From Edaphobacter aggregans (GTDB taxonomy: Bacteria; Acidobacteriota; Terriglobia; Terriglobales; Acidobacteriaceae): a stretch of DNA of 32,000 bases. The stretch spans positions 6,120,257-6,152,256 of the forward strand of contig NZ_RSDW01000001.1 of NCBI RefSeq assembly GCF_003945235.1. The letters run 5' to 3'. The first letter of the stretch is position 1, and every line of letters begins with the position of its first letter. Under the pieces are notes generated by a model. That model was not told the DNA's origin and did not search any database. It saw nothing but the letters and a program-made list of their open reading frames with translations. The translations under genes and the position numbers were made by a program. Shown piece after piece: positions 1,259 through 17,497 of the stretch.

Positions 1259-1274
1259 TGTGGGTTGCTAGCAA

Positions 1275-1319
1275 AGCGGGTGCTGAGTTGAAGTCTGACT
1301 TGGCACCCGCTGCTTTTTG
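1275..1319 (+). terminator. putative intrinsic terminator/attenuator after flgE
   Basis: Perfect 9-bp stem AGCGGGTGC (1275-1283) / GCACCCGCT (1303-1311), followed by GCTTTTTGC. The loop is long (19 nt), which weakens the call. Confidence 0.55.
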
Positions 1320-1400
1320 CTGCCTTGTTGGGGGATTCTAAAGATCCGTTAATTTTCAAGAGGCTGGCTATGGCTACTAGCTTGCAGTAATTACGGCATC

Positions 1401-1946: not shown

Positions 1947-1953
1947 GAGATTT

Positions 1954-2283: not shown

Positions 2284-2324
2284 CGACTGGGTAAGAACGA
2301 AGACGTGACGAACGGAGCGGATGG

Positions 2325-2618
2325 ATGCAGGTTACACAAAAGACCGAACAGACGATCGCAGAGAATGCAGGTTTGGAGTTGCAGGGGTTTGCGGGATGGT
2401 TGCTTGGCCTTGTGCGGGGTCGAAGAGGTGTGCGTCATGGACAGCAGAGGTTGATGAAAGTGGTGGAGACGCTGCCGTTGGGTGGGAAGCGTCAATTGAT
2501 GCTGGTGCGCTGCGGGGAGAAGCATTTTCTTGTTGGCGGCGGGCTTGAGAGTGTTGAGACGATTGTGCGGGTTGAGGGTGGGATGTCGATCGAGAGTCAG
2601 GATGGGATATGTCTCTAG
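2325..2618 (+). CDS. fliO: flagellar biosynthesis protein FliO
   Basis: 97 aa with a short hydrophobic segment (FAGWLLGLV) followed by a FliO-type motif (LKVVETLPLGGKRQLMLVRCGEKHFLVGGGLESVETIV). It lies immediately upstream of fliP and overlaps it by 10 nt. Confidence 0.65.
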   Translation: MQVTQKTEQTIAENAGLELQGFAGWLLGLVRGRRGVRHGQQRLMKVVETLPLGGKRQLMLVRCGEKHFLVGGGLESVETIVRVEGGMSIESQDGICL

Positions 2619-3508
2619 GGCGTGGGCTGCGATGGTTCGCTCTGGTGGTATGGATGGTGGTGCCTCTGCCGGTGATGCTGGGCCAGCAGACGTTATTGGC
2701 GTCGTCGGCTTCTCCTGAGTCGTTTTGGGTGAAGCGGGATGCGGGTAAATCGAACGGCGTGGGTACGGGGAAAAAGGTCGCGGGGAAGGCCGGGGGCAAA
2801 GCACATTTGCACGAGTCGGCTGCCGGTCCGACTGGGAATACTGGGTTGAGCAAGAAAGACTCGATTGCGAGCGAGCTGGAGTCCAACCGGAGTACGCCGT
2901 GGTCGATTGTGGTGGGGTTGACGCTTTTGACGTTGTTGCCTGCGTTGCTGCTGTCGATGACTCCGCTGGTACGACTGTTGGTGGTGTTTCACTTTCTGCG
3001 GCAGGCGTTGGGGACGCAGACGGCGCCTTCGAATCAGGTGTTGATGGGACTGGCGTTGATGATGACCTGGTTCCTGATGCAGCCGGTGCTGCAGGAGGTG
3101 GAGCAGAAGGCAGTCGCTCCGTATCGAGCGGGGGCGATCTCGGGTGAAGATGCGTTGGATCGCGGTGTTCAGCCGGTGAAGCAGTACATGCTGCGTTATG
3201 CGCGGGAGAAGGATCTTGCTGTATTTGCTTCAGCGGGGATGAGTGAGCGGCCAAAGACGAAGGAGGATCTTCCGATCCAGGTTGTCGTGCCGGCTTACAT
3301 CCTGAGTGAGCTGAAGGCTGGATTTCAGATTGGGGCGGTTTTGTTTCTGCCGTTTCTTCTGGTGGACATTGTGGTTGCCAGCGTGACGACTTCGATCGGG
3401 ATGATGCAGCTGCCGCCGGTGGTGATCTCGACGCCTTTGAAGATTCTGCTGTTTGTGATGGTGGATGGATGGAATCTGCTGGCGGACCAGTTGATTAAGA
3501 GCTTCTAA
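2609..3508 (+). CDS. fliP: flagellar type III export gate protein FliP
   Basis: 299 aa. An N-terminal signal-like helix and a long Gly/Lys-rich linker precede the canonical FliP core (SIVVGLTLLTLLPALLLSMTPLVRLLVVFHFLRQALGTQTAPSNQVLMGLALMMTWFLMQPV ... VVPAYILSELKAGFQIG...LVDIVVASVTTSIGMMQLPP). Confidence 0.92.
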   Translation: MSLGRGLRWFALVVWMVVPLPVMLGQQTLLASSASPESFWVKRDAGKSNGVGTGKKVAGKAGGKAHLHESAAGPTGNTGLSKKDSIASELESNRSTPWSIVVGLTLLTLLPALLLSMTPLVRLLVVFHFLRQALGTQTAPSNQVLMGLALMMTWFLMQPVLQEVEQKAVAPYRAGAISGEDALDRGVQPVKQYMLRYAREKDLAVFASAGMSERPKTKEDLPIQVVVPAYILSELKAGFQIGAVLFLPFLLVDIVVASVTTSIGMMQLPPVVISTPLKILLFVMVDGWNLLADQLIKSF

Positions 3509-3532
3509 CTTTTGGGTTTTGTGGAGATGTGA

Positions 3533-3802
3533 ATGGGGCCGGACCAGACGGTGGAGATGATGCGGAAGGTGCTGATGGAGGCGATGATGCTATCTGCTCC
3601 GCTGCTGGTTACAGCTTGCCTTGTAAGTCTTCTGGTGAGTCTGGCGCAGACGTTGACGAGTGTGCAGGAGCAGACGCTGACGGCGGTGCCTCGGCTGGTG
3701 GTTGTGTTCGGCGTCACGATGACGATCCTTCCGTGGGTGGTGCATCGGCTGGTGAGCTTCACGCTGCATATGTTGACCGGGTTTCACAAGTACCTGGGGT
3801 AG
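3533..3802 (+). CDS. fliQ: flagellar export gate protein FliQ
   Basis: 89 aa with two TM helices and a FliQ pattern (LMEAMMLSAPLLVTACLVSLLVSLAQTLTSVQEQTLTAVPRLVVVF). GGAG lies upstream of the ATG. Confidence 0.9.
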   Translation: MGPDQTVEMMRKVLMEAMMLSAPLLVTACLVSLLVSLAQTLTSVQEQTLTAVPRLVVVFGVTMTILPWVVHRLVSFTLHMLTGFHKYLG

Positions 3803-3807
3803 ATGGC

Positions 3808-4590
3808 ATGAATCGAGAGGCTAGCACATTGATCAACGATTGGCCGCAGTACCTGACGGCGGCGGTGCTTGTGCTGGTGCGATTGAGTGGGCTGATGGTG
3901 TTTGCGCCGTTGTTTTCTTCAGCGGCAATTGCTCCTCGGATCAAGGCTGGGTTTGTGATCGCGATGACGGTCTTGCTTGCGCCTGCTGTTGCGGCGGTTC
4001 CGAATGCGCGGGTGTCGCTGGATATGAAGGCAGTGTTGGGTGAATTGGGTGTGGGATTGGTGTTTGGGTTGTCGCTGACGTTGCTGAATGAAGCGCTGAC
4101 ATTTGCTGGGGCGTTGTTGGGAATGCAGTTCAGTTTTTCGCTGGTGAATCTTATGGATCCGAACTCAAAGATCGAGACGCCCGTGTTAGGACAGATGCTG
4201 GGGTGGCTGGGGATTCTTGTACTGATCGGTGCGGGGTTGGATAGAAGTTTGCTGGCTGCTGTGGTGAGGAGCTTCTGCACTGTGCCGGTGGGACAGGCGG
4301 TGGTGCAGGCGAAGACGGGGATGGCACTGGCGATGATGGCGGGCGGGATTTTTTTGGCAGGGCTGCAGTTGGCTGCTCCGGTGATTGCAGCGGCGATGGC
4401 GGTGGAGGTGACGATTGCGTTGGTGGCTCGGCTGTCTCCGCAGTTGCCGGCGATGGTGCTGAGTGTGCCGCTGAAGACGCTGGTGTCATATGCGGTGCTT
4501 ATCGGGAGTTTGGCGGTTTGGCCGGGATGGATTGAGCGGCACTTTACTGCGTTGCTGGATGTGGCGGGAAGGTTGATCGCGAACGCATGA
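3808..4590 (+). CDS. fliR: flagellar export gate protein FliR
   Basis: This is an internal ATG of track ORF 3529..4590. From MNREAS the product is a polytopic membrane protein with a FliR pattern (VLVLVRLSGLMVFAPLFSSAAIAPRIKAGFVIAMTVLLAP). The first 93 codons of the track ORF overlap fliQ in another frame and are Gly/Asp/Ala-rich, so I treat them as noise. Confidence 0.88.
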   Translation: MNREASTLINDWPQYLTAAVLVLVRLSGLMVFAPLFSSAAIAPRIKAGFVIAMTVLLAPAVAAVPNARVSLDMKAVLGELGVGLVFGLSLTLLNEALTFAGALLGMQFSFSLVNLMDPNSKIETPVLGQMLGWLGILVLIGAGLDRSLLAAVVRSFCTVPVGQAVVQAKTGMALAMMAGGIFLAGLQLAAPVIAAAMAVEVTIALVARLSPQLPAMVLSVPLKTLVSYAVLIGSLAVWPGWIERHFTALLDVAGRLIANA

Positions 4591-5732
4591 GCACGAAGGG
4601 GACGGAACAGGCTACTCCTGAACGAAGGAAGAAGGCGAAGGCGAAGGGCGATAGTGTTCGCAGCCGTGAGTTGCTTTCTGCGATGGCAATGCTGGGTGGT
4701 GTGGCGATGTTGGGGATTTCGGCCCATGGATTTGTTGCGGGTTGGGGCAAGGTCTATATCGAGAGCTTGCGATCTGCTGCGGTGGACGAGGTGAACGGGG
4801 ATCAGGGGTGGAATGAAGCTGTGCGGCGAATGCTTGCTCCTGCGTTGCTACCGGTTGGGCTAGTTATGGCCGCGAGCTTCGGGGGTGCGCTGCTTGCGGG
4901 TGTGGCGCAGGGTGGTGGAGTGCAGGTTCATCCGAACGCGGTGGGAGTGAAGTTTTCGAAGTTGAATCCGGTTACGAATTTGGGACACCTGTTTAGTTTG
5001 CGATCGACGACACGTCTGGTGAAGTCTCTGGTGCCTGCGGCAGTGATGGTGGTGTTGGGGTGGGGAGCGCTGAAAGCGTTGATGCTGCCTATGCCGGTGA
5101 TGAGTTTGATGCGGCTACCCGCTACGTTTTCGACGGCGTATGGACTGGCGCTGGATGCGGCTTGGGTGACTCTGGCTTGGTCTGGGCTGGACTATGCGAT
5201 GGAGTGGAGGAGCTGGAATGAGCGGCTGAAGATGAGCAAGCAGGAGATCCGCGATGAAGTGAAAGAGGCGATGGGAAACCCGCAGGTGAAGATGAAGATC
5301 CGCCAGATCCAGATGGCGATGCGGAAGCGCAAGGTCAAGGCGGATATGTCGCGCGCGAGTGTGGTGATTACGAATCCGACGCACTATGCGGTGGCGCTGG
5401 AATTCAGCTTCGAAACGATGGAGGCCCCGAAGGTGCTGTGCAAGGGACGTGATCTGCATGCGGCGGAGATTCGAGAAGAGGCTCGGTGGGCTGGGATTCC
5501 GATGATAGAGAACCCTCCGTTGGCACGGAGTTTGTACAGGATGGTGGAACCAGGTCAGTCAATTCCATTTGAGCTGTATGCGACGGTTGCGGGGATTCTG
5601 GCTTATCTGTACCGGCAGAAAGTGGAGGAACGGATGCGGCGGGAACGGCAGGCACAGTTGGTTCGACAGAGTGGAGGGCTTCGTGAGATGGCAATGGCTG
5701 GTGGAATGCGTGGATTTGGAGGTGGAATGTGA
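4587..5732 (+). CDS. flhB: flagellar export switch protein FlhB
   Basis: 381 aa. The N-terminus reads TEQATPERRKKAKAKGDSVRSRELLSA. The conserved NPTH autocleavage site is present (VVITNPTHYAVAL), as is the C-terminal IPMIENPPLARSLY motif. ATGA overlap with the fliR stop. Confidence 0.93.
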   Translation: MSTKGTEQATPERRKKAKAKGDSVRSRELLSAMAMLGGVAMLGISAHGFVAGWGKVYIESLRSAAVDEVNGDQGWNEAVRRMLAPALLPVGLVMAASFGGALLAGVAQGGGVQVHPNAVGVKFSKLNPVTNLGHLFSLRSTTRLVKSLVPAAVMVVLGWGALKALMLPMPVMSLMRLPATFSTAYGLALDAAWVTLAWSGLDYAMEWRSWNERLKMSKQEIRDEVKEAMGNPQVKMKIRQIQMAMRKRKVKADMSRASVVITNPTHYAVALEFSFETMEAPKVLCKGRDLHAAEIREEARWAGIPMIENPPLARSLYRMVEPGQSIPFELYATVAGILAYLYRQKVEERMRRERQAQLVRQSGGLREMAMAGGMRGFGGGM

Positions 5733-7837
5733 GTGAAGCGGTGATGACGAAGAATGATGGGTTTTCTACTGCGAAATTGCAGAGTTTGTTGCTGCCGGTA
5801 ACTGCGATCAGCATGGTGTTCGTGATGCTGATTCCGGTGCCGAGCTTTGTGCTGGATCTTTTGCTGGCTGCTTCGATTACGGCTTCGGTGATTGTGTTTC
5901 TAACGGCTGTGCAGGTGCGACGGGCGGTAGATTTCTCTGTGTTTCCTACGCTGCTCTTATTGCTGACGTTGTTCCGGCTGTCGCTGAACCTGGCTTCGAG
6001 CCGAAGAATTCTGCTGCATGGACATGAGGGGACGCATGCCGCGGGTGCGGTGATTGAGGCGTTTGGGCAGTTTGTGATCGGGGGAAACTACGTTGTTGGG
6101 TTTGTATTGTTTCTGGCGCTGATCGCGATTCAGTTTTTGGTGGTGAGTCATGGCGCGGTGCGGACGGCGGAGGTGACAGCGCGGTTCACGCTGGATGCTC
6201 TTCCTGGTAAGCAGATGGCGATCGATGCGGATATGAACGCCGGGTTGATCGATGAGCAGGGTGCACGGAAGCGTCGGCAGGCGATTGCGCGAGAGGCCGA
6301 GTTCTATGGCGCGATGGATGGTGCGGCGAAGTTCAATCAGAGGGATTCGCTGGCGACGATTCTGATTACGGTGATCAATATTGTGGCGGGATTGTTGATT
6401 GGAGTGCTGCAGCAAGGCGCTGATCTGACTACGGCGGTGAAGACTTACACGATTCTTACGGTTGGCGATGGCTTGGTGACGATGATTCCGAGCCTGCTGG
6501 TGTCGATTGCTGGTGGCATGGTGCTGACGCGGGCTTCTTCGGCGGGATCGCTTGATGATGAGCTGGGAACGCAGTTGCTGCGCGGGCGGAACACGCTTTG
6601 GATTGCGTGTGCTGTATTGCTTGGACTGGCTTTGATTCCGGGATTGCCGAAGTTGTCGTTTGTGTTGATGGCGGCTGGGGTTGCGCTGATCGCGCGGAGA
6701 CTGCCGACCGGGAAGAATGGGGCGGCAGCGGTAGATGAAGCTGCTCCTGGAGAGAAGGCGAAGGTGGTTGAGGTGGCGAAGAGCGAGAACCTGGCTTCGC
6801 TGCTGAAGATGGATGAGCTGACGCTGGAGATTGGATTTCAGCTGATCTCGATGGTCGATGAGAAGCAGGGCGGGCAGATGCTGAATCGGGTTCGTGCGCT
6901 GCGACGGCATCTGGCTACGGAGCTTGGGTTCATTGTTCCGGCGGTACATATTACGGACAATCTGCGGTTGAAGCCGAGAGAGTATGTGGTGAGTCTGCGG
7001 GGAGTGGAGATTGCGCGATGGCAGACGGAGCAGAACTGTTTGCTTGCGGTAAATGCTGATCCTAAGGCTCGCGCTCTGCCGGGTGTGGAGACGCGGGAGC
7101 CGGCGTTCGGCGTGATGGCCAGGTGGATTCAGCCGGGGCTCGAGGAGCAGGCGCTTGCGGCGGGGTACTCGGTTGTAGACCAGACGACGGTGATTGGAAC
7201 TCATCTTGGCGAGCTGATTCGCAGACATGCGCATGAGTTGTTGGGGCGGCAGGAGGTGAAGCGACTTCTGGACAGCATGAATGAGAGTCATCCGAAGCTG
7301 GTGGAAGAGTTGGTGCCGAAGCTGATGACGCTAGGTGAAGTGCAGCGGGTGTTACAGCAGCTCCTGCGGGAACAGGTTTCAATTCGCGACCTAGGGGCGA
7401 TTCTTGAAGTGCTGGTTGAAGCGGCGCAACAGTCGAAGGATGTGGTGCATCTGGTGGAGAGCGTGCGTCAGTCGCTGGGACGTGGGTTGGTTCATCCGCT
7501 GCTAGATGGTGAAGGTGGGCTGCGCGTTCTGATGTTGGACCAGGCACTGGAGACGGAGTTGGTGCATACGTTCGATCCGCGCGGCGCTGCCTTGTTGCTT
7601 GGAGATGGAGCGCGACCAGGAGGAATGCCTGCGGATTTTCTGAGGCGGCTTGTGGAATCTGTGAAACGCCTAACCGGAGGGGCCCCGACATCGGCACTTC
7701 CCGTGCTTCTGTGTCAGAGTCCGGCGCGCTATCACGTACGGCGTTGGCTGGAGCCGTTTCTACCGAAAGTGACCGTGTTGGCACCGGCAGAGATTCCGCC
7801 GGAGATCCGGGTACGGAGTTTAGGGACGGTTGGTTGA
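5729..7837 (+). CDS. flhA: flagellar export apparatus protein FlhA
   Basis: 702 aa. Conserved FlhA/InvA N-terminal membrane domain (FGQFVIGGNYVVGFVLFLALIAIQFLVVSHGAVRTAEVTARFTLDALPGKQMAIDADMNAG) and a cytoplasmic C-terminal domain. GTG at 5729 overlaps the flhB stop. An alternative ATG at 5744 is possible. Confidence 0.95.
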   Translation: MSEAVMTKNDGFSTAKLQSLLLPVTAISMVFVMLIPVPSFVLDLLLAASITASVIVFLTAVQVRRAVDFSVFPTLLLLLTLFRLSLNLASSRRILLHGHEGTHAAGAVIEAFGQFVIGGNYVVGFVLFLALIAIQFLVVSHGAVRTAEVTARFTLDALPGKQMAIDADMNAGLIDEQGARKRRQAIAREAEFYGAMDGAAKFNQRDSLATILITVINIVAGLLIGVLQQGADLTTAVKTYTILTVGDGLVTMIPSLLVSIAGGMVLTRASSAGSLDDELGTQLLRGRNTLWIACAVLLGLALIPGLPKLSFVLMAAGVALIARRLPTGKNGAAAVDEAAPGEKAKVVEVAKSENLASLLKMDELTLEIGFQLISMVDEKQGGQMLNRVRALRRHLATELGFIVPAVHITDNLRLKPREYVVSLRGVEIARWQTEQNCLLAVNADPKARALPGVETREPAFGVMARWIQPGLEEQALAAGYSVVDQTTVIGTHLGELIRRHAHELLGRQEVKRLLDSMNESHPKLVEELVPKLMTLGEVQRVLQQLLREQVSIRDLGAILEVLVEAAQQSKDVVHLVESVRQSLGRGLVHPLLDGEGGLRVLMLDQALETELVHTFDPRGAALLLGDGARPGGMPADFLRRLVESVKRLTGGAPTSALPVLLCQSPARYHVRRWLEPFLPKVTVLAPAEIPPEIRVRSLGTVG

Positions 7838-7870
7838 GGTCGATGGTTCAGACGGTGAAAGCGCAAGGAT

Positions 7871-8806
7871 ATGGAGGAAGTGATGGGCTTAGGTAGTGTG
7901 GTTCCGGTGATGTTGGGGGGGGGGTCGAGGAGCGGGCTCCTTGGTGAGGAGCAGCCGGTGTTTGCTGGAGAAATGGCAAACACGTCAGGCGGATCGTTTA
8001 CACCGTTTACTGGCGACGAGTCGCTTGATAGCGGCGCAGTTGAAAGCGAAGTTGCGACGGATCGGGATCTGTTGCTGATGGAGCATCTGCCGACGGTGCG
8101 GTATCTGGCGCGGAGGATCCATGAGAGGTTGCCGCAGCATGTTGACTTGGACGATTTGATCTCGGCTGGTGTGGTGGGACTGATTGATGCGTTCTCGAAG
8201 TTCGATCACAGCAAGAAGGTGCAGTTCAAGAGCTATGCGCAGTTCAGGATTCGCGGGGCGATTCTCGATTCTCTGCGGACGCTGGACTGGAGTCCCCGGG
8301 AGCTGCGTCGGAAGGGCAGGGCCGTTGAGGAGGCTATACGGTCGGTGACGCAGCGGGTTGGGCGGGCACCATCGGAGCTGGAGATCGCCGGTGAGATGAA
8401 GCTGAGTTTGACGGAGTATCAGCAGCTGCTTGGGGACCTGAAGGGGTTGGAGATTGGCAGTCTGCATATGGAGCGGTCTGAGGAGTCGGGCGATGAGGAA
8501 CTGGCTTATGTGCCGGGATCGCCTGAGGAAGATCCGTTGTTTCGCTGTTTGAAGGGCGAGATGAAGCAGCGGCTGGCGGACGCGATCGATGAGCTTCCGG
8601 AGAAGGAGCGCATGGTGCTGACGCTCTACTACTACGAAGAGCTGACGATGAAGGAGATCGGATTGACGCTGGGCGTCGTGGAGTCTCGGGTCTCGCAGAT
8701 TCATTCTTCGGCAGTGTTGCGATTGCGGACGGCGCTGGCTGATTTGCGTAAGGGTGGAGAGATCTCGAAGAAGGTGACGGGGAAGAAGAAGGTTATTGCT
8801 CGTTGA
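7871..8806 (+). CDS. fliA: flagellar sigma factor FliA (sigma-28, FliA/WhiG family)
   Basis: Region 2 reads LPTVRYLARRIHERLPQHVDLDDLISAGVVGLIDAFSKFD...FKSYAQFRIRGAILD. Region 4 reads LPEKERMVLTLYYYEELTMKEIGLTLGVVESRVSQIHSSAVLRLR. The start is uncertain: ATG 7871, ATG 7883 (GGAGG 5 nt upstream) or ATG 7973 are all in frame. Confidence 0.88.
   Translation: MEEVMGLGSVVPVMLGGGSRSGLLGEEQPVFAGEMANTSGGSFTPFTGDESLDSGAVESEVATDRDLLLMEHLPTVRYLARRIHERLPQHVDLDDLISAGVVGLIDAFSKFDHSKKVQFKSYAQFRIRGAILDSLRTLDWSPRELRRKGRAVEEAIRSVTQRVGRAPSELEIAGEMKLSLTEYQQLLGDLKGLEIGSLHMERSEESGDEELAYVPGSPEEDPLFRCLKGEMKQRLADAIDELPEKERMVLTLYYYEELTMKEIGLTLGVVESRVSQIHSSAVLRLRTALADLRKGGEISKKVTGKKKVIAR
7915..7924 (+). repeat. G10 homopolymer tract in the fliA 5' region
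   Basis: Read directly: ...gtgatgttGGGGGGGGGGtcgagg... It encodes LGGG if fliA starts at 7871 or 7883. It lies about 50 nt upstream of the start if fliA begins at 7973. Confidence 0.9.
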
Positions 8807-8838
8807 GTATGAACTAAGACGGTGAAGAAGGGTGATGG

Positions 8839-9852
8839 ATGGAAAAGAATCTTTTACAGGAAGATATTGATGCGTTATTTGCGGCGGCTGGTGCGAATGC
8901 TACAGCCAAGACAAACGACAATGGCGATGCCAAGCCCCCGGAAAAATACAGCTTCAGCAATGCGGGGCAGATCAGCAACGATCAGATGCGGGCGATCAGT
9001 ACGGTTAATGATTTGTTTGCTCGCAACCTGATGCACACGCTGGGTGCATGGCTTCGGATGCCACTGAAGGTGAAGTTGGTATCGGGTGAACAGCTTCCGT
9101 TCAACGAATTTCTGGAGCGGCTTTCCACCATGTCGTATATCTGTTCGGTGCGCCTGGAGCCGTTGGGAGCAGTAGGATTGCTGGAGTTGGATCTGGCCCT
9201 GGCTGCGCCTATCGTGGATGTGCTGTTGGGTGGAACCGGGCGCGCGGGACAGGTGCGCGAGCTGACGGATATCGAGGAAGCAATTCTTACGGCCGTGGTG
9301 CAGGTGGTCATGCAGGAGCTGAACCTGGCGTGGCAGCCAGTGGGATTGGTATTCGCCTTCGAGAAGCGTGAGACGGAGGCGCAGGCGGCACGGACGATGA
9401 CGCTGGGTGAGAAGACGTTGTGCGTGAGCTTCGAGGCGCGTATGCCCGAGGTGCAGGGAGTGTTGAATCTGTGTCTGCCTGCGGTGGTGTTGAATGCGAT
9501 TCTGCGCAGATTGATCGCGCAAGGAGATCAGCCGCGCAGGAGGTCGAAGGACGCGCAGGCGAAGATGCGAGAGTTGGTGGGCGAGGTGAAGGTTGGTGCC
9601 GTGTTGCAGTTTCCGCCGGTGCGTTTACGCGCGGCTGAGCTGTCATCGCTGGAACCGGGTGCAGTTCTGCGGCTGCCGTTGCCGCGATACCAGATGGCAG
9701 AGTTGCGTGTGGGTGGGTTGCAGTTTGGACGGGCTTATCCGGTGCGAACAGGAGAGCATCGCGGCGCTCAGATTGAAGGCGAGAACTGCGGATCTCTGAT
9801 GAAGCTGTCTTCTGGCAATGATGTTGCTGCCGCAACGACGAGTGTGAATTGA
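8839..9852 (+). CDS. fliM: flagellar motor switch protein FliM
   Basis: 337 aa. The N-terminus has a CheY-P-binding-type peptide (LLQEDIDALF, compare the LSQxEIDxLL consensus). A FliM middle domain and a C-terminal SpoA-like region follow (VGAVLQFPPVRLRAAELSSLEPGAVLRLPLP...ELRVGGLQFGRAYPV). Confidence 0.88.
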   Translation: MEKNLLQEDIDALFAAAGANATAKTNDNGDAKPPEKYSFSNAGQISNDQMRAISTVNDLFARNLMHTLGAWLRMPLKVKLVSGEQLPFNEFLERLSTMSYICSVRLEPLGAVGLLELDLALAAPIVDVLLGGTGRAGQVRELTDIEEAILTAVVQVVMQELNLAWQPVGLVFAFEKRETEAQAARTMTLGEKTLCVSFEARMPEVQGVLNLCLPAVVLNAILRRLIAQGDQPRRRSKDAQAKMRELVGEVKVGAVLQFPPVRLRAAELSSLEPGAVLRLPLPRYQMAELRVGGLQFGRAYPVRTGEHRGAQIEGENCGSLMKLSSGNDVAAATTSVN

Positions 9853-9865
9853 GAGGGAAGAAGAA

Positions 9866-10174
9866 ATGGAAAATGTTGCGGGTGCGGATGAGCCGGCTAT
9901 CACGGCGGCGGCGATCGGTTTGTTGTCGGACGTCGAGCTGGATGCGACGCTGCGATTTGGCTCGCGTGAGATGGCGTTGCGCGAGGTGCTGGAACTGGGG
10001 CCGGGAGCTGTTGTTGAGCTGGACCGGCATGTCACTGAGCCAGTGGATCTGGTTGTAGGAGATCGGATTGTGGCTCGAGGTGAAGTGGTGGTGGTGAATG
10101 GCAACTTTGCGTTGCGCATTACGGAAGTGGCGACGCCGCAACTGCGGCTGGAGAGCATACGATGCCTTTTCTAG
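9866..10174 (+). CDS. fliN: flagellar motor switch protein FliN
   Basis: 102 aa with a canonical FliN SpoA domain (DVELDATLRFGSREMALREVLELGPGAVVELDRHVTEPVDLVVGDRIVARGEVVVVNGNFALRITEV). GAGGGAAG lies upstream of the ATG. Confidence 0.9.
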   Translation: MENVAGADEPAITAAAIGLLSDVELDATLRFGSREMALREVLELGPGAVVELDRHVTEPVDLVVGDRIVARGEVVVVNGNFALRITEVATPQLRLESIRCLF

Positions 10175-11103
10175 AGAAGCATAAGAATGTTGAGGACACA
10201 GTGGTGTGGGGTGGGGGTACGTATGGTCAGGCGGGGCTTGGGCCAGGGTCGGTGGGAGTTGCGGAGCCGCGGCGGTTATGTGGGTATGCGGAGTGCTCGA
10301 GTACCTGGACGGTGCCTTGGCGGAGTCGGAAGAGGCCTGTGTTTGAGGGGCAGTGGGGTTGTGGGGGGCGGTGTGTGCTGGGGCTGGTTCGGGCGGCGGT
10401 TCAGCGGGAGTTGGGAGAGGGCTCGGTGGGGCCTCAGGCGCATCGGCATAGGGTTCCGCTTGGGCTGGTGATGCTGGCGCAGGGGTGGATTACGCATCCT
10501 CAGTTAAGGAAGGCGCTGGATGCGCAGAGGGAGAGTGGGTCGGGGCGGATCGGCGACTGGCTGGTGAGCGAGTGCGGACTTGAGGCAGAGCAGATTACGC
10601 GAGGCCTCAGTATGCAGTGGAGTTGTCCTGTGCTGCCGATGATGGGCTTCGCTCCGGAGGCAATGGCCCTGGTGATGCCGAGGGTGTTTGTGGAGGAGTT
10701 CGGACTGTTGCCGCTTCGAGTTGCCGGATCGCGGATTCTGTACCTGGCGTTTGAGGATCGGCTGGATGCCGCGGCCGCGTTGGCGATCGAGAGGATGTCA
10801 GAGTTGAAGGTGGAGAGTGGGTTGGTGGATGGGAAGGAGTTTGAGCCGGCGCGGAGACGACTGCTTGAATATGAGTCTGTGCCGGTGAAGGTTGAGGTTG
10901 CTGCGGACTCGGATGCCTTGTCGGCCCGGATTACGGCAATTCTTGAACAGAAGCAGCCTCTGGCTTCGCGGTTGGTTCGGCTGCATCAATATTACTGGCT
11001 GAGGGTCTGGCTGGAGCAGGATGCGATGAGTGTGGTTGGGAGTTTGCCGAAGAGCTCTGAAGATGTTGGCGACTTCGTCTTTACGGTTGGCGGGCTGGCT
11101 TAG
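10162..11103 (+). CDS. uncharacterised protein with tandem MshEN-like motifs plus a T2SS-E N-terminal-like domain, no ATPase domain; candidate c-di-GMP receptor coupled to the flagellar switch genes
   Basis: 313-aa ORF whose ATG overlaps the fliN 3' end by 13 nt. Residues ~99-152 read PLGLVMLAQGWITHPQLRKALDAQ-RESGSG-RIGDWLVSECGLEAEQITRGLSMQ. This is followed by LPLRVAGSRILYLAFEDRLDAAAALAIERMSELKV, which resembles the GspE/PilB N-terminal domain. The N-terminus carries a C-x4-C...C-x3-C cluster. No Walker A motif is present. The CDS itself is well supported. The function is inferred. Confidence 0.6.
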   Translation: MPFLEKHKNVEDTVVWGGGTYGQAGLGPGSVGVAEPRRLCGYAECSSTWTVPWRSRKRPVFEGQWGCGGRCVLGLVRAAVQRELGEGSVGPQAHRHRVPLGLVMLAQGWITHPQLRKALDAQRESGSGRIGDWLVSECGLEAEQITRGLSMQWSCPVLPMMGFAPEAMALVMPRVFVEEFGLLPLRVAGSRILYLAFEDRLDAAAALAIERMSELKVESGLVDGKEFEPARRRLLEYESVPVKVEVAADSDALSARITAILEQKQPLASRLVRLHQYYWLRVWLEQDAMSVVGSLPKSSEDVGDFVFTVGGLA

Positions 11104-11183
11104 GGTTTGCCAGCTACAGAGGCCTAACACCGATTTCACCGATCAAGGCCGGTGAACGCCAAGGGCATTGAAACATCGGCTTA

Positions 11184-11591
11184 TTACTGGGAGAAGGTGG
11201 GTGTGTCGGAGGGGTTGGCAGCTCGGAAGGCCGGGGAACTAGCGGTTGGTTGAGCGTCCTGGTGGGGGCCGAGGCCGAGTTTGATGATGGCGCGGGAGTC
11301 GGGCATCAGCTTGGTTTGCCAACCATTGTCAGACTGGAATTTTTGCATCGCGGCCTCGGTTTGGGAGTCCCAATGACCGCTAGCTTGGCCGGAAAGGTAG
11401 CCGGATTTGATGAGGGCTGTCTGAATTTCAGTGGCGCGGTTATCGTCGATTGCGCGCTGGCCGGTGTGCTTAGGGGCTGGCTTAGTGTGCTTGGGAGAGG
11501 TCGGACCACGACGGGCGTGGGAAAACGCGACGCAGGGAATCGCAGTTGCAACGAGCAGCGCAGAGCTTAGGAGGAGTCTGACAGATTTCAT
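11184..11591 (-). CDS. secreted peptidoglycan-binding-domain protein
   Basis: 135 aa. Signal peptide (MKSVRLLLSSALLVATAIPCVAFS). PG_binding_1-like pattern (ATEIQTALIKSGYLSGQASGHWDSQTEAAMQKFQSDNGWQTKLMPDSRAIIKLGL). Confidence 0.72.
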   Translation of the reverse strand: MKSVRLLLSSALLVATAIPCVAFSHARRGPTSPKHTKPAPKHTGQRAIDDNRATEIQTALIKSGYLSGQASGHWDSQTEAAMQKFQSDNGWQTKLMPDSRAIIKLGLGPHQDAQPTASSPAFRAANPSDTPTFSQ

Positions 11592-11951
11592 AGAAAATTC
11601 AGCGCCTCGAGTTGCAGTATCGAACAGAACATGTACCGTCCCTGCTGAACTCGTGGTTAGGGTATCCCGAGAGTTACCAGTATGGCAACAACAAAGATTG
11701 GACGTACTGGTACGGCTTTTGGGTGAGTCTTGCTTACTTTTATTCTACCTGTTGGGTAGGCCAAAGCATTGATCGGGGCGGTGTTATTGGCGAGGATTTT
11801 ACTGTTGTTCACGTGGGTGCGGCATGTTCGATAAATAGCTTGCGAAAGAAGTCTAGGAGCTAAAGCCCTTATTATTAACGGCTTATTCCGCAGAGTTAAA
11901 GCCCAGCGCTCACCGTCCGCAGGACAGAGCCAAGCTACAGTAGATGTGCAA

Positions 11952-11978
11952 AGGGCGCGAAGGTGATCCGCGCCCCTT
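11952..11978 (-). terminator. putative intrinsic terminator downstream of degP
   Basis: On the minus strand: GGGGCGCG-GATCACCTT-CGCGCCC followed by TTTG. It begins ~20 nt after the degP stop. The T-tract is short. Confidence 0.45.
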
Positions 11979-11998
11979 GTGTTGTAAAGTGGTGGACG

Positions 11999-13657
11999 CT
12001 ACGGGAGAGTTCCGCCTACGTAGGAGTTGCCACTGTTTTTCTGCTGGGGATAGTGGACGACGAAGACGACGTCGTCTTTGGATTTAAGGGCGGAGACGAT
12101 AGCCTTGTAATCGGCCTCGTTGGTTACGGGCTTTTTGTTGATTTCAGTGATGATAGCGCCCTTGACGAGGTTGATCTCGTCGGCAAAGGAGCCAGGCCGA
12201 ACGGTGGTGACCAGGACACCGCCCTTGGTGCCGGTTTTGGTAGCAATCTGGGGCGGGACGGCCGAGACGGTGATGCCGAGTTTGTTCTGGCCGGCGTCTT
12301 CCTCTTGCGGTGCGGCGTTGTCGTCGTTGTCTCCAGCGAGATCGGAGTAAGTCTTGGCTCGGTCGCCGATCGCGACGTTAGCTGTTTCCTGTTTGCCGTT
12401 GCGGAGGTAGCCGAGTTTGACCATGGTGCCAACGTGACGGGCGGAGATGTCGGCTACGAGGTCGTCGCCATCTTTAATATTGCGGCCGTCAATCGAGACA
12501 ATGACGTCACCAGGTTGAAGGCCAGCTTTAGCAGCGCCGCCGTTAGGAGTGACGGTGGAGACCATGACTCCGTTGGTGAAGCCGTACATACGGCCGACCG
12601 CGGAGCTGAGGGCAGGCTGGAAGCTGATGCCGATGGAGCCGCGAACGACCTTGTGCTCGGGCCCGATGAGCATGTTGTAAACAGAGGCGATGGTGTTGGC
12701 CGGCATGGCGAAGCCGACACCCTGCGAGCCCATGGACTGGGTGTAGATGGCGGTGTTCATGCCGACGACGTTACCGGCCATATCCACGAGCGGCCCGCCG
12801 GAGTTGCCGGGGTTGATGGCGGCGTCGGTCTGGATGAAGCGCTGGAACTGGCTCTGCGAGACGCCGTTGGGGCCGGGTTCATCGATGGAGCGGTTTTTGG
12901 CGGAGATGATGCCGGCGGTGACGGTCTTGGAGAGGGCGAAGGGGCTGCCGATGGCGAGGACCCAGTCACCGACCTGTGCGCTGTCGGAGTTGCCGAGCTT
13001 GACGGTGGGCAGGGGTTCCTTGGAGTCGATCTTGATGACGGCGATATCGGTGTCTTTGTCGACGCCGACTACGTGGGCCGGACGGCCTTCTTCGCCTGGC
13101 GCGCCACCGTCAGGATCGGTGGAGAGGCGGACGAAGATCTTGTCGGCCTTATCGACGACGTGATTGTTGGTGATGATGTAGCCGCGCGAGTCAACGATGA
13201 AGCCGGAGCCGAGGGCTTTGCGCTCGCCCCCGAAGCCGCCGTCGTCGTCACCGTCGCCACCCTGGCCGCCGAAGAAGCGATTGAAAAAGTCCTGCATGTC
13301 GCCGGGCTGCTGCTGGTCGTCATCGTTCCCGCCCTGCGGAGCGCGCTGACCGCGATGGTTTTTCTTGACGGCGGACTGCTTGGGCAGGGAGTCGGTGGTG
13401 ATGTTGACCACGGCGGGACCGACCTGTTTGACGATCTGCGAAAAACCATTCGAAAGAGTGACGGGCGAAGGGATAACGAGAGGCTTTGCGTCGGATGAGT
13501 CGACTGTGGCCTGTTCCTTGCCGCTGACGCCGTGGGTGAGAACGGAGCCGACGAGTATGCCGACAGAGAGCGTCGCGAGCAAGGTGAAGGTGGTAGCAAG
13601 GCGGCGGCCGCGGATGCGATCCAGCAGGCTCGGAGAAGTGCGTATCGGTGTATCCAT
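11999..13657 (-). CDS. degP: periplasmic serine endoprotease, DegP/HtrA (Do) family, two PDZ domains
   Basis: 552 aa with an N-terminal TM/signal anchor. The trypsin-like triad context is present (GSGFIVDSRGYIITNNHVV; DIAVIKI; TDAAINPGNSGGPLV). Two PDZ-like segments follow (AAKAGLQPGDVIVSIDG; SFADEINLVKGAIITEINKKPV). Confidence 0.93.
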   Translation of the reverse strand: MDTPIRTSPSLLDRIRGRRLATTFTLLATLSVGILVGSVLTHGVSGKEQATVDSSDAKPLVIPSPVTLSNGFSQIVKQVGPAVVNITTDSLPKQSAVKKNHRGQRAPQGGNDDDQQQPGDMQDFFNRFFGGQGGDGDDDGGFGGERKALGSGFIVDSRGYIITNNHVVDKADKIFVRLSTDPDGGAPGEEGRPAHVVGVDKDTDIAVIKIDSKEPLPTVKLGNSDSAQVGDWVLAIGSPFALSKTVTAGIISAKNRSIDEPGPNGVSQSQFQRFIQTDAAINPGNSGGPLVDMAGNVVGMNTAIYTQSMGSQGVGFAMPANTIASVYNMLIGPEHKVVRGSIGISFQPALSSAVGRMYGFTNGVMVSTVTPNGGAAKAGLQPGDVIVSIDGRNIKDGDDLVADISARHVGTMVKLGYLRNGKQETANVAIGDRAKTYSDLAGDNDDNAAPQEEDAGQNKLGITVSAVPPQIATKTGTKGGVLVTTVRPGSFADEINLVKGAIITEINKKPVTNEADYKAIVSALKSKDDVVFVVHYPQQKNSGNSYVGGTLP

Positions 13658-13836
13658 TGGCGGGTTCTTACCTCATTCTTGCGTTACGGTGCGCCGGTGC
13701 CAGAAAGGCTCGGCGAAACCTTAAGTATAGTTGCATTTCAGTTTCCGCGGCTTTACTCGCCTGTACGTTCTGTATATAGAGAGGCGATTGACGCCTTTCG
13801 GTTGTTTAGACGCGAATCTCTGACAAAAGTGACAGA

Positions 13837-14763
13837 TCAGACGGGGTGGGTGGGGAGTTCCGATGGTGTTGCAGTGAGTTCGGTTATGGCGATTCCGGTG
13901 AGGATGAGAGCGGCTCCGATGAGAGCTCGTTGGCCTAGATGCTCGTGGAGGAAGAGGACGGAGGTCAGGGCAGCGAAGACGGGTTCGAGGGTGAGGAGTA
14001 GTGCCGTGTGGGTCGGCGGGAGGTGCTGCTGGGCCCAGCTTTGGATGGTGAAGGCGGCGGCGGTGGCTACGAGGCTGGTGATTCCGAGGGCGATCAGAAG
14101 GCGGAGCGTGATGGTGAGGTGAGGCTTGCCTCCGAGGGGGAGGGTGACGGCCATGATGACGGCGGCGGTGCCGATCTGGAGTGTGGCCAGTTGAGCGGTG
14201 GGAACTTTGTGCGAGGTGTGGGCAAGAGAGAGAAGGTGTCCGGCGAAGGCTATGGCGCAGACGAGGGTGAGGATGTCGCCGATGCCTATGCTGGAGAAGA
14301 GATTTTGCCATGTGGTCCCGGCTGGAGTGGTGAGGAACAGGAGGCCAGAGAAGGCCAGGAGCGCTCCGATGGCGGTGGTCCATCGGGGGGCGTGGGCGTT
14401 GGCGGGGCGCAGGATGGGGACGATGGTGAACAAGGGGACGAAGACGACGACCAGGCCGGTGATGAAAGCGGATTTGGCGGCGGTGGTGCGGGCGAGGCCA
14501 GCGGTTTGAAATTGGTATCCGGCGGCGAGGAAGAGGCCGACGATCAGCCCCGAGATGAGGGATGTGCGGTTAATGTTTCGCAGGTGGCGGTGATTGATGA
14601 TGACCAGCGCGATGGTGGCGAGGGTCATGCGGAGGAGATTGAAGAGGAGCGGGGAGGCGTCGTTGAGAGCGTCCTTGACGAGGACGAAGGTGACTCCCCA
14701 GACGGCGACGACTCCCAGGAGGAGGATGTGTGCGAGGGTAGATGGGCTTAGGCTGCGCGGCAA
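13837..14763 (-). CDS. EamA/DMT-family transporter
   Basis: 308 aa with ~10 predicted TM helices and a duplicated EamA pattern (LLGVVAVWGVTFVLVKDAL ... ALLLTLEPVFAALTSVLFLHEHLG). An apparent TTG start lies 1 nt after the upstream amidohydrolase stop. Confidence 0.85.
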   Translation of the reverse strand: MPRSLSPSTLAHILLLGVVAVWGVTFVLVKDALNDASPLLFNLLRMTLATIALVIINHRHLRNINRTSLISGLIVGLFLAAGYQFQTAGLARTTAAKSAFITGLVVVFVPLFTIVPILRPANAHAPRWTTAIGALLAFSGLLFLTTPAGTTWQNLFSSIGIGDILTLVCAIAFAGHLLSLAHTSHKVPTAQLATLQIGTAAVIMAVTLPLGGKPHLTITLRLLIALGITSLVATAAAFTIQSWAQQHLPPTHTALLLTLEPVFAALTSVLFLHEHLGQRALIGAALILTGIAITELTATPSELPTHPV

Positions 14764-14764
14764 A

Positions 14765-16486
14765 TTATTTGCTCAGCGGTGGGGTTTTCGGGTTGGTGTA
14801 GACGGTTTCGCCGTTGACGATGGTGCGGAGGACTTGGGTGTGCAGGAGTTCCTGTGGGGTGGCTTTGGTGATGTCGCGGTCGAGAATGACGAGGTCGGCT
14901 AGATAGCCGGGTTCGAGGCGGCCTTTGAATTTCTCGGCGTTTTGAGCGTAGGCGGAGGCTTGCGTGTAGGCGTAGAGGGCTTCGTTGAGGGTGATTTTTT
15001 CCTGGGGCTGGTAGGTTTTGGTGCCGGCTTCGTTCTGGCGGGTGACGGCGGCGTACAGGCCGCGGAAGGGGTTGATGGATTCGACGGGGTAGTCGGTGCC
15101 GAAGGCGAGGACGACATTGTGGTCGAGGAAGGAGCGCCAGGCGTAGGAGTATTTGACGCGCTCGGGGCCCAGGCGGGCTTCGGCCCAGTTCATGTCGGTG
15201 AGGAGGTGTGAGGGCTGCATGGAGGCGATGACGTGGAGTTTTGCGAAGCGGTCGAAGGCCCCGGGGGAGACGACCTGGGCGTGCTCGATGCGGAAGCGGG
15301 GAATGACGGTCAATTGGTCGAAAACGTTGTGGGGGCTGCGAAGAGCCTGCTCGAAGGCGTCGAGGGCCATGTCGTTGGCGCGGTCGCCTATGGCATGGAA
15401 ACCGAGTTGGAAACCGACCTCGGCACGTTCTTTGGCCATGGCGTTAAGCTTTGTCTGGTCGTAACGGGGGATGCCGGAATTGCCTGGGTCGTCCGAGTAG
15501 GGGGCATTGAGGGCGGCGGTGCGGGAGCCGAGGGAGCCGTCCATGAAGCCCTTGAGCATGGTGGTGTGGAGGAAGGCATCACTCTGCGGGTGGGAGGCCT
15601 GGCGCTGCTTCAAGGTGTCAACTGGGGTGTCGAAGGCAAGCCATTCGGCTACGCGGAGGTGGAGGTTGCCGGATTTTTCGAGGTCTTCGAGGGCCTGGAA
15701 GTCTTCCCAGTCGGAGAAGTCCTGGACGGAGGTGACGCCGTGAGCGAGAGCGTCGGCCATGGCGACTTCGAGGGCTCGGGTGCGCTCGTCGCGGGTAGGG
15801 GGCGGGACGACTTTGTAGATGAGCGCGAGAGCTGGACGTTCGCGGATGATTCCGGTGGGGTTGCCGTTGGCATCGCGGTCGATCTTTGCGCCTTCGGGAT
15901 CGGGGGTGGCGGCGGTGATGTTGGCGGCCGCGAGGGCTGCCGTGTTGACGACGGCAATGTGGCCGTCGGTGCGGCCCAGGATGGCGGGATGGCCAGCGGT
16001 GACGGCGTCGATGTCTTGACGGGTGGGGAGGGTTTTTCCAGGCCAGATGGTGTGGTCCCAGCCTCCGCCTTGTAGCCATGTGCCGGGCTGGGCGGTGGTG
16101 GCGAATGTTTTGATGCGCTGCTGCATCTCGGCCAGGTTGGCTACGTGGTCCAGGTCGATGGTGAGTTTTTGCTGGCCAGCCGACGCGATGTGCGTGTGTG
16201 CGTCGTTGAAGCCGGGCATGACGAAGGCGCCGTTTAGGTCGATGATTTTTGTTTGCGGACCTTTGAGCTTTAGGAGGTCTGCGTCGGTGCCGGCGGCGAG
16301 GATCTTGCCGTTTGCTATGGCGATTGCGGTGACATGGGCTGGTGTGGGACTTGTGTCCTGCTGGCGCAGATGGGTGCCTGTGACGATGTTTCCGTGGATG
16401 TAGATGGTGCCGGGCGGGGTCGTTTGGGCGAGGGTGGGCGCGGCGAGGGCGAGGAGCAGGAGGGTGGTGAGAATGCGGGGGTTCAC
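14765..16486 (-). CDS. secreted metal-dependent amidohydrolase (Amidohydro_3 / YtcJ-like)
   Basis: 573 aa. Signal peptide ([21 protein letters not shown]). Metal-binding motif [12 protein letters not shown]. Later motifs are [16 protein letters not shown] and [12 protein letters not shown] start. Confidence 0.88.
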
Positions 16487-16586
16487 GAGGTGGAGTGTAT
16501 CAAGGGATCACCATGCAAAACATGGAAATCGCGTGCCAAGGGCTTTCCGATAATCAGGGTTCGCTTTCCTCGGTCGTTCGATGAAA

Positions 16587-17489
16587 CTAGTTTTCTGAAG
16601 GCATCTCAACATGATCGATGACGAGAACCTGTACTGGTCCTTTGGTAGATTCCAGTTTCAGGCCGAGTTGTTCCTGAATCGCGGTGAAGATTGACGATCC
16701 GGAATCGGACGATGCGGCAGTGACCTCTCTGCCGTTGTCCAGGGGAGTTGTGCCGGTATCTGGTGTCCACTTGAGAGTGACGTTATATCTTCCGTCAATT
16801 CCGGTCTTATCGATGACGACGCGGCCCAGCTCCTGCGACAACTCCTGTGTCAATGCCTGGGCCATTTCCTGCAGGGTAACGCCTTGTGCTGTGAACTGGC
16901 CGGTGCTTGCGGATGTATTGGAACCTCCATCAGAGTCCTTCGATTTTTGAAGACTGGGACCTTTCTTTGCTACGACCAGGGCGTAGACCGGAAGGTCTCT
17001 TGTCTCCCAATGAATCGTTAGTTTGAAGCGGTCTGCCAAGAGCTGTTGAAACATCCCTTGCATCTGAAGTTTGCGCTGGACACGGCTAAGCGTTCGCAAT
17101 TGATCGGCGGTCGAGCTATCTATCTTTGCCTCGATGTCGAATCTTTCGGCATTGAGCCACTTCGGGCCGCCCAGAATACGAGGCTCTGGGACTCCGTAGG
17201 CCGAATACTGGATGAGATTTTTCAACAAGATGTTAGAGGCAGTGAAACGTCCATTTTCAAATTTGGAATGGGAGCTTGAGCTGCCGGACTTGTTCGGTTT
17301 TACGATAGTCACTTCGAAGGCCAGAGGTGTGGCAACTACAGGAGCGGCCGCAAGTGCTAGCGCGGTCGCGGCGGATGCTGAAGTCTGGGCGAACGATACG
17401 ATGGGGAGAGATGCAGTTATGGCCAACAACAGCTTTATGATGGAAGGCGTTTTTCGGTTCATACGCTCGATCAACTTGGAGGCACCCAT
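16587..17489 (-). CDS. TIGR03435-family 'soil-associated' uncharacterised protein (DUF3738-like)
   Basis: 300 aa with a signal peptide. Family-typical blocks as I remember them: LKNLIQYSAYGV...GGPKWLNAERFDIEAK, LQQLLADRFKLTIHWETRDLPVYALVVAKKGPSLQ, and C-terminal QEQLGLKLESTKGPVQVLVIDHVEMPSEN. An alternative start exists at the MNRK methionine (17462). Confidence 0.75.
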   Translation of the reverse strand: MGASKLIERMNRKTPSIIKLLLAITASLPIVSFAQTSASAATALALAAAPVVATPLAFEVTIVKPNKSGSSSSHSKFENGRFTASNILLKNLIQYSAYGVPEPRILGGPKWLNAERFDIEAKIDSSTADQLRTLSRVQRKLQMQGMFQQLLADRFKLTIHWETRDLPVYALVVAKKGPSLQKSKDSDGGSNTSASTGQFTAQGVTLQEMAQALTQELSQELGRVVIDKTGIDGRYNVTLKWTPDTGTTPLDNGREVTAASSDSGSSIFTAIQEQLGLKLESTKGPVQVLVIDHVEMPSEN

Positions 17490-17497
17490 AACTTCTT

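Follow-up and report, generated by a model that had tools for sequence, protein, structure and literature searches.

In the switching of bacterial lifestyles, the control of swimming by cyclic di-GMP (c-di-GMP) is a central theme. Flagellar brakes and clutches of the PilZ type include YcgR, MotI/DgrA and FlgZ, and the Cle proteins of Caulobacter are c-di-GMP-binding CheY-like proteins. To our knowledge, all receptors characterised as acting directly on the motor belong to one of these two types. The MshEN domain has so far been known from pili, secretion and polysaccharide synthesis. The present analysis concerns a predicted MshEN protein that is encoded in a flagellar operon of Edaphobacter aggregans, within a 32,000-nucleotide (nt) stretch of contig NZ_RSDW01000001.1 (henceforth the window). 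Gene and protein, henceforth referred to as X, occupy positions 10162..11103 of the plus strand. The open reading frame codes for 313 amino acids (aa). Its product comprises a putative zinc finger, an MshEN domain and a C-terminal domain and is devoid of enzymatic domains.

MshEN architectures lacking an ATPase have been catalogued, including REC, CheX, CheA and glycosyltransferase fusions and the stand-alone Pseudomonas aeruginosa protein PA3740 (Wang et al. 2016, PMC5013675), so that MshEN without an ATPase is not new in itself. In PA3740 a stand-alone MshEN domain is joined to a diverged T2SSE_N1 domain; the protein is a c-di-GMP binder with a reported link to swarming motility (Wang et al. 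2016, PMC5013675). Also known are fusions of the type (MshEN_N)2-CheX, represented by Geobacter lovleyi Glov_2742, and CheA proteins into which MshEN_N is inserted (PMC5013675, Supplementary Table 4).

The candidate ligand-binding region of X lies at residues 99-152 (nt 10456-10617), which read PLGLVMLAQGWITHPQLRKALDAQ / RESGSG / RIGDWLVSECGLEAEQITRGLSMQ, with motif residues and coordinates as quoted in the original prediction. It forms the core of a predicted c-di-GMP-binding MshEN_N module at 10447..10617 (+), supported by NF053729 and by conservation, in which an invariant H96-R97 pair precedes two motifs (99-122 and 129-152) separated by six residues. As a single sequence, X matched the NCBIfam model NF053729 (‘c-di-GMP_motif’, a cyclic di-GMP-binding domain related to MshE) over residues 99-152 and model positions 1-53 of 53 (E 1.4e-9). 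Its best NCBIfam match was the c-di-GMP-binding C-terminal region of NfrB (E 2.1e-10), and residues 101-240 aligned with residues 3-141 of the PilB N-terminus (TIGR02538, E 1.1e-6). A profile built from 21 relatives and compared with the PDB matched PilF (3e-15), Geobacter PilB (4e-11), Myxococcus PilB (1e-8) and MshE 5HTL (9e-7). A diverse alignment of the family was assembled from 90 members with 22-94% identity to X, and all 90 matched NF053729 (best E 1e-13). Several relatives also exceeded the Pfam cut-off for PF05157 (24.0-25.7 bits), and others carry a precomputed PF05157 annotation. Because the single-sequence NCBIfam matches, the family profile against the PDB and all 90 relatives agree, the homology of X to MshEN is considered established at the sequence level, X itself being a marginal scorer in its family.

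The family is large, with more than 1100 homologues at E<=1e-3 and 168 clusters at 50% identity with E<1e-30. Source annotations of these relatives give just ‘hypothetical protein’ or ‘T2SS protein E, N-terminal domain’, and an exact look-up of the X protein in the public gene index returned no record. Neither Walker A nor Walker B patterns were found in X, and no T2SSE ATPase domain was detected by Pfam or NCBIfam, in line with the ATPase-free protein originally described. The PilZ, PilZN and YcgR families gave no Pfam match at E<=1.

Conservation of the predicted ligand contacts was assessed against the 24-residue tandem motif (R/K/L)LGxx(L/V/I)(L/V/I)xxG(L/V/I)(L/V/I)xxxxLxxxLxxQ. In the first motif, position 1 was Pro in 90/90 members and positions 2, 3, 17, 21 and 24 were L, G, L, L and Q in 88-90. 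In the second, position 1 was R/K in 89 members and the same five positions were I/V/L, G, V/I, L and Q in 89-90. The ligand-contact columns thereby rank among the most conserved of the family, in which members share as little as 22% identity. When X was aligned with MshE 5HTL, residues R97, P99, L100, G101 and Q122 of X corresponded to R7, R9, L10, G11 and Q32 of MshE; in motif 2, R129, I130, G131, I145, L149 and Q152 corresponded to R38, L39, G40, L54, L58 and Q61. Substitutions that abolish binding have been reported for XpsE as G11V, R38G, G40L, L54H, L58C and Q61V (PMC5013675), and none of these six is present in X.

Departures from the motif were traced individually. The Pro at position 1 of motif 1 has counterparts in Escherichia coli NfrB (P489-L490-G491) and in PilF GSPII-C (P335). 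The C-terminal MshEN domain of NfrB, which carries P489-L490-G491, binds c-di-GMP (PMC8669469), and the relaxed search pattern of Wang et al. 2016 permits P at position 1 (PMC5013675); motif 1 of X fits that published pattern. The Trp at position 11 of motif 1 is found in PilF GSPII-B (‘KGWIS’), whose dissociation constant for c-di-GMP is 6 nM despite its non-Arg first residues. X and PilF GSPII-B also have in common a motif-2 turn that is one residue shorter, with a Gly six residues before the aliphatic residue at position 17. The Cys-Gly pair at positions 10-11 of motif 2 is confined to the clade of X itself, and in the majority of relatives position 10 is the canonical Gly. One detail of the original prediction required correction: the Glu assigned to position 12 of the second copy is actually a Leu, and Glu occupies position 13. 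By residue comparison, every deviation of X is matched in a protein proven to bind (NfrB, PilF GSPII-B/C), the residual worries being the 6-residue spacer and the Cys-Gly pair.

The structure of X was predicted with AlphaFold. A model based on 21 close homologues reached a predicted local distance difference test score (pLDDT) of 50 and was discarded, and the prediction was redone with the 90 diverse members, giving a pLDDT of 85.7 and a predicted template modelling score (pTM) of 0.81. Over residues 101-150, a span taking in the greater part of the motif region, the means of 10-residue blocks were 93-98. The model contains helices at 100-106, 112-125, 130-138 and 142-152, followed by a beta-beta-alpha-beta-alpha arrangement. 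In a Foldseek comparison with the PDB, only MshEN-type domains matched at E<=1e-3. The top match was c-di-GMP-bound MshE 5HTL (E 4e-8, template modelling (TM) score 0.76, root-mean-square deviation 3.4 A, 143 columns), the next leader was c-di-GMP-bound PilF GSPII-B (8PDK), likewise over ~143 columns, and 2BH1 and 7LKO were among the structural neighbours. The MshEN_C or T2SSE_N1-like alpha/beta subdomain was placed at residues 153-240 (10618..10881, +) by PF05157 (165-233), TIGR02538 and Foldseek, as anticipated by the earlier suggestion of an N-terminal GspE/PilB-like fold 3' of the motif. In the predicted structure, residues ~97-240 are a complete MshEN domain composed of a four-helix bundle and the T2SSE_N1-like subdomain. 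The MshEN-like identity first proposed from the motif is thus borne out by significant profile matches and by a predicted fold that is complete and nearest to ligand-bound MshE.

Two further domains of X, both overlooked in the original prediction, flank the MshEN domain. Residues 36-90 (10267..10431, +) contain the pattern C40-x4-C45 ... C67-x3-C71 followed by a long helix. All four Cys were invariant in the alignment of this region (A4); among the 90 diverse members, C67 and C71 were invariant and C40 and C45 at least 90% conserved, and distant members show the pattern CxxxxC...WYCSPEC. Comparison of the A4 profile with the PDB and Pfam gave nothing significant, the best being the MetAP1 zinc finger at E 0.27. 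Judged by its Cys conservation, this segment is probably a small zinc finger that would bind metal. The C-terminal domain, residues 241-313 (10882..11100, +), was modelled as beta-alpha-beta-beta ... beta with a pLDDT of 85-97 and contains an invariant W279 and a near-invariant R281; its profile (A3) had no match in the PDB. An origin of this domain by internal duplication, as a second T2SSE_N1, was considered and found unsupported, the hhalign probability against the MshEN subdomains of X being <1% (0.1% for the T2SSE_N1 subdomain). A subfamily of longer members (P0123, P0125, P0127 and others) carries an additional C-terminal tail of ~200 aa that is acidic and apparently disordered. In P0123, P0125 and P0127 and their relatives the tail ends in conserved …E/D-P-(I/L)-DGEY(L/M)… and GWNR-GLL segments, which may be a linear docking motif. 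A search of the longer members for informative fusions found no Pfam domain in the tail.

X is tightly joined to the flagellar gene fliN (9866..10174, +; 102 aa; FliMN_C, Pfam E 2.3e-24). The fliN stop codon TAG is at 10172-10174 and therefore the ATG of X at 10162 sits 13 nt inside fliN (overlap 10162..10174, +), with the Shine-Dalgarno sequence GGAGAG at 10150..10155 (+) within the 3' end of fliN. The arrangement TGGAGAG, 6 nt, start codon (ATG, or GTG in two loci) is kept in at least 34 related genome loci. The -13 overlap was scored in 34/63 loci, with ~8 more in which the script took a nearer start codon. Translational coupling of X to fliN is likely on this evidence from gene layout. X is the last gene of the operon, because the genes 3' of it, encoding a peptidoglycan-binding protein, HtrA and EamA, converge on it from the opposite strand. 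Coordinates, stop codon and convergent genes all agree with the 13-nt overlap at the operon end that had been described originally. X is probably co-translated with FliM and FliN and would thus be made whenever C-rings are made. The invariant N-terminal MPFL of X was considered as a docking peptide and rejected: its four codons are exactly the stretch overlapping fliN, and its invariance reflects dual coding only.

Linkage to fliM-fliN was examined in both directions. Species-representative genomes were scanned with family-specific peptide patterns, a design that is silent on absence outside Acidobacteriota, and 68 X loci (several designated below by L numbers) were obtained. Acidobacteriota accounted for all of them, and most carried the label Acidobacteriaceae, Terriglobales or Terriglobia. 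X follows fliM-fliN directly in ~60 of these 68 species-level loci. For the reverse test, 80 metagenome loci were picked by FliN similarity, and the 75 with at least 150 nt downstream were scored; X was immediately 3' of fliN in 74, and the single exception has just 167 nt downstream. Scattering of orthologues outside flagellar loci was therefore not seen in either set. As to the question raised originally of whether X always follows fliN, its orthologues are bound to fliM-fliN across Terriglobia in genomes and metagenomes, with exceptions in L059, L064 and the class D loci described below.

Four classes of context were distinguished. Class A, comprising Edaphobacter (including E. aggregans), Granulicella and Tunturibacter, has the order ...flhA-fliA-fliM-fliN-X followed by convergent genes. 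Class B, comprising Terracidiphilus and others, is seen at its fullest in L072 as fliOPQR-flhBA-fliA-fliM-fliN-X-cheY-cheX-flgFGAHIJ-flgM-flgN-flgK. Class C (L054, L059, L062, L064, L069/70) has a divergent membrane GGDEF gene, a REC-sigma70_r4 chimera and then (fliM-fliN)-X, and class D (L058, L071) has a GGDEF gene of the class C type divergent from X-cheY-cheX-flgFG.... The product of this GGDEF gene keeps the GGEEF site intact, and the linkage of the gene to X persists in these two classes although the intervening genes differ. In L069 the fliM-fliN-X triad is kept apart from the export genes, without flhA or a canonical fliA. At the fliA position of this locus lies a 292-aa chimera (5326-6204) made up of an OmpR-type receiver, a partial winged helix and a FliA-like C-terminus. 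Its counterparts are at 3770-4360 in L054, 5298-5885 in L059, 3910-4242 in L062 and 5092-5681 in L064. The C-terminus of the class C chimera is 50-73% identical to FliA region 4 of other loci, and its gene is divergent from the GGDEF gene; the chimera may be a phosphorylation-controlled mimic or competitor of sigma-28.

Because of its MshEN homology and fold, its conserved contact residues, its two-way synteny with fliM-fliN and its linkage to cheY-cheX and a diguanylate cyclase, X is best read as a dedicated cytoplasmic c-di-GMP receptor acting on the flagellar switch or motor. A probability of roughly 55% is assigned to this reading, in which binding of the ligand, the identity of the target and the direction of the effect are all predicted from homology, modelling and gene context. 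The interpretation first proposed agrees with the computed evidence on each point open to such analysis. One molecule of c-di-GMP would bind the four-helix MshEN_N bundle (residues 97-152), and binding would reorient the bundle relative to the T2SSE_N1-like subdomain, as in PilF GSPII-B. T2SSE_N1 subdomains are protein-docking modules in secretion and pilus ATPases, as in the GspE-GspL and PilB-PilZ complexes. The altered surface, acting with the zinc finger and C-terminal domain, might then change the binding of X to FliM/FliN, and possibly to FliG or CheY. At high c-di-GMP the motor output or its switching would change, most plausibly by slowing or stopping, and brake, clutch or bias are all possible outcomes. 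A more specific version of this mechanism is offered tentatively and is, on balance, doubtful. X would be a near-stoichiometric, PilZ-independent MshEN subunit of the switch complex, fed by a neighbouring dedicated diguanylate cyclase, that stops or re-biases the motor; the zinc finger and C-terminal domain would form its rotor-docking surface, and X would represent a third structural class of flagellar c-di-GMP effector.

Several observations weigh against a c-di-GMP receptor at the motor. Although the E-values of X against the MshEN-type profiles are significant, its scores lie just under the curated cut-offs, at 37.6 bits against 38 for NF053729 and 18.3 bits against 23.1 for Pfam MshEN (PF05157), which matches only the second subdomain (165-233). 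Motif 2, in which Cys-Gly replaces Gly-aliphatic, does not fit the published relaxed pattern; in MshE, altering the ‘middle Gly’ lowers binding; and the spacer between the motifs has 6 residues, not 5. With regard to context, X directly follows a sigma-like (REC-sigma) gene without fliM-fliN in L059 and L064, and in several classes fliA or the REC-sigma chimera accompanies X as regularly as fliM-fliN do. Within the window, the neighbourhood of X in E. aggregans contained no GGDEF, EAL or PilZ gene.

Three other explanations share parts of the same evidence. The best placed, though unlikely, is that X serves as a c-di-GMP checkpoint of flagellar assembly, acting on C-ring assembly or on type III export through FlhA or through FliH/FliI docking on FliN. 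The binding-site and synteny evidence applies equally to such a role, X shares one operon with the export-gate genes fliPQR-flhBA, and the conserved overlap suggests stoichiometric co-translation with FliN, on which the export ATPase complex docks. Against this stands the persistence of the fliM-fliN-X triad apart from the export genes, and the adjoining cheY-cheX genes point indirectly to control of the motor rather than of assembly.

A role in flagellar gene expression is somewhat less probable still. Here X would be a c-di-GMP-dependent regulator that sequesters or modulates FliA or the REC-sigma chimera, in the manner of RsiG-WhiG in Streptomyces. A gene for FliA or the REC-sigma70_r4 chimera lies upstream of X in nearly all loci, fliA being three genes upstream in E. 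aggregans, and in L059 and L064 X comes straight after the REC-sigma gene with no fliM-fliN between. Zinc-binding modules are also common among anti-sigma factors. The Cys pattern of X differs, however, from the HxxxCxxC of ZAS anti-sigma factors, and no RsiG or FlgM homology of X was found in Pfam. The clusters of L072 and L029 also contain a canonical anti-sigma gene, flgM, and in class D (L058, L071) X adjoins cheY-cheX-flgFG with no adjacent sigma gene. A precedent for the principle exists elsewhere in the form of a c-di-GMP-armed anti-sigma-28 factor, as described in PMC12871210.

Equally improbable is a degenerate, non-binding MshEN domain of the XpsE type, which would leave X as a structural or accessory subunit of the Terriglobia switch complex that works independently of the ligand. 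MshEN homologues that do not bind are on record (PMC5013675), and the sub-threshold scores, the P for R at position 1, the 6-residue spacer, the Cys-Gly of motif 2 and the polar residue that most relatives have at position 7 of that motif would all be accommodated. Against degeneration, the ligand-contact columns are the most conserved in the protein among members sharing only 22-30% identity, each deviation is found in a proven binder, and a linked diguanylate cyclase retains an intact GGEEF in two context classes. The notion that X is a truncated or pseudogenised pilB fragment was rejected, as X is intact, conserved down to 22% identity, equipped with extra domains of its own and fixed in its flagellar synteny.

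The remaining genes of the cluster lie 5' of X on the same strand, with short gaps or overlaps, in the order flgE, fliL, a SpoA/FliN-like gene, fliO, fliP, fliQ, fliR, flhB, flhA, fliA, fliM and fliN. Those located in the window include flgE (32-1258, +), fliL (1401-1946, +), fliQ (3533-3802, +; 89 aa), flhA (5729-7837, +), fliA, encoding a sigma-28 type sigma factor (7871..8806, +; Pfam Sigma70 r2, r3 and r4), and fliM (8839..9852, +; Pfam FliM E 5.9e-39 plus FliMN_C). The second SpoA/FliN-like gene (1906-2283, +; 125 aa; FliMN_C E 4e-10) lies ahead of fliO and shares 41 nt with the end of fliL, and the flagellar cluster around X thus encodes two FliN-type proteins plus FliM. The open reading frame listed as fliR (3529-4590, +; 353 aa) is over-extended at its 5' end, fliQ being a separate open reading frame in another frame, and the true fliR start is probably near 3811 (MNREAST...). 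FliN itself varies in length when the window is set against L027-L074: it has 102 aa in the E. aggregans clade but 263-288 aa in L069 and L072-L074, which are other Terriglobia. Among class B loci, 500-900 nt separate the FliM and FliN tblastn matches, which suggests a long N-terminal extension of FliN.

In many polar flagellates the position after flhA is occupied by an flhF/flhG (fleN) pair. In the window flhA is directly followed by fliA (7837-7871; also at the L072-L074 junctions), and the pair was absent from the Terriglobia loci examined. A simple promoter and terminator scan of 7700-11700 gave no match, such a scan being uninformative in DNA this rich in G+C. Beyond the flagellar cluster, a DUF3738 protein (E 1e-61; 16587-17489, -) is encoded among peptidase and amidohydrolase genes and is unrelated to X.

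The plus strand of the window has a GC skew of 0.28, which rises to 0.71 at the third codon positions of X. Genes on the plus strand (32-11103; 0.305) and on the minus strand (11184-19788; 0.298) have the same skew. Values of 0.20-0.26 were obtained in related Edaphobacter/Tunturibacter loci (L002, L004, L008 and L017 are also strong) compared with ~0.01-0.06 in distant Terriglobia, and in L001 the skew falls from 0.31 to 0.01 after ~7 kb. The skew suggests an unusually strong replication-strand mutational bias in the Edaphobacter/Tunturibacter clade.

The full-text literature searched, a body of text outside which many subscription journals fall, yielded no account of a flagellar MshEN effector, and the supposition that a stand-alone MshEN receptor of the flagellum is undescribed held within that coverage. 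What appears undescribed is the family as a whole, in which a zinc finger, MshEN and a C-terminal domain are fixed in a core flagellar operon by fliM-fliN. Should the proposed role be correct, MshEN, the other widespread high-affinity receptor fold, would also have been recruited to the flagellum. For Acidobacteria, a soil phylum that is abundant and little studied, X would be the first concrete candidate for a c-di-GMP effector, and a context would be assigned to two conserved domains without detectable homologues. The system is simple to test, X being a small soluble protein with clear motif mutants and FliM, FliN, FliG, CheY and FliA as candidate partners.

Among the known systems, Vibrio cholerae MshE (5HTL; PMC5013675) is similar to X in having two tandem 24-residue motifs that form a four-helix bundle followed by an alpha/beta T2SSE_N1 subdomain. 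X differs from MshE in the lack of a T2SSE ATPase, in its 6-residue spacer and in its additional zinc finger and C-terminal domain. Pro takes the place of Arg9 of MshE, and the invariant Arg two residues earlier aligns with MshE R7. X is encoded in a flagellar operon, whereas proteins of the MshE type are encoded in pilus or secretion operons. PilF resembles X in its non-Arg first residues (K167, L196, and P335 in GSPII-C) and in the Trp at position 11 of motif 1, and the ligand-induced subdomain reorientation of its GSPII-B domain may serve as a signalling model for X. PilF nevertheless carries three tandem copies of the domain in a hexameric pilus-assembly ATPase, and X carries one copy and no ATPase. 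E. coli NfrB (PMC8669469) shares with X a first motif beginning Pro-Leu-Gly and exemplifies MshEN as an allosteric switch outside the secretion ATPases. In NfrB the domain is fused to a membrane glycosyltransferase and has an enzymatic output, in contrast to X, which is without an enzymatic output domain.

The nearest architecture is that of PA3740 (Wang et al. 2016 supplement), like X an enzyme-less MshEN protein with an extra C-terminal domain, the two being compared by description and not by sequence. No zinc finger has been described for PA3740, and the C-terminal domain of X has no detectable T2SSE_N1 similarity, unlike the diverged T2SSE_N1 of PA3740. The PA3740 gene is not known to be part of a flagellar operon. 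The CheX and CheA fusions tie MshEN-type sensing to the chemotaxis and switch machinery, as does X, which is followed by cheY-cheX in many Terriglobia. These fusions contain the MshEN_N subdomain only and are uncharacterised, whereas X has a full MshEN domain and is a separate protein encoded beside fliM-fliN.

With the PilZ brakes and Cle, X would share the same proposed job, that of a small cytoplasmic protein that binds c-di-GMP, docks on the rotor or stator and reduces or biases motor output. Its fold and chemistry are unrelated to those of the PilZ brakes, since MshEN binds monomeric c-di-GMP mainly by hydrophobic contacts. The X gene, unlike those for the PilZ proteins and Cle, is probably translationally coupled to fliN inside the core flagellar operon. 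Taken together, these sequence-based comparisons suggest that X is a known receptor fold in a new job, and that a known job is carried out by a new fold.

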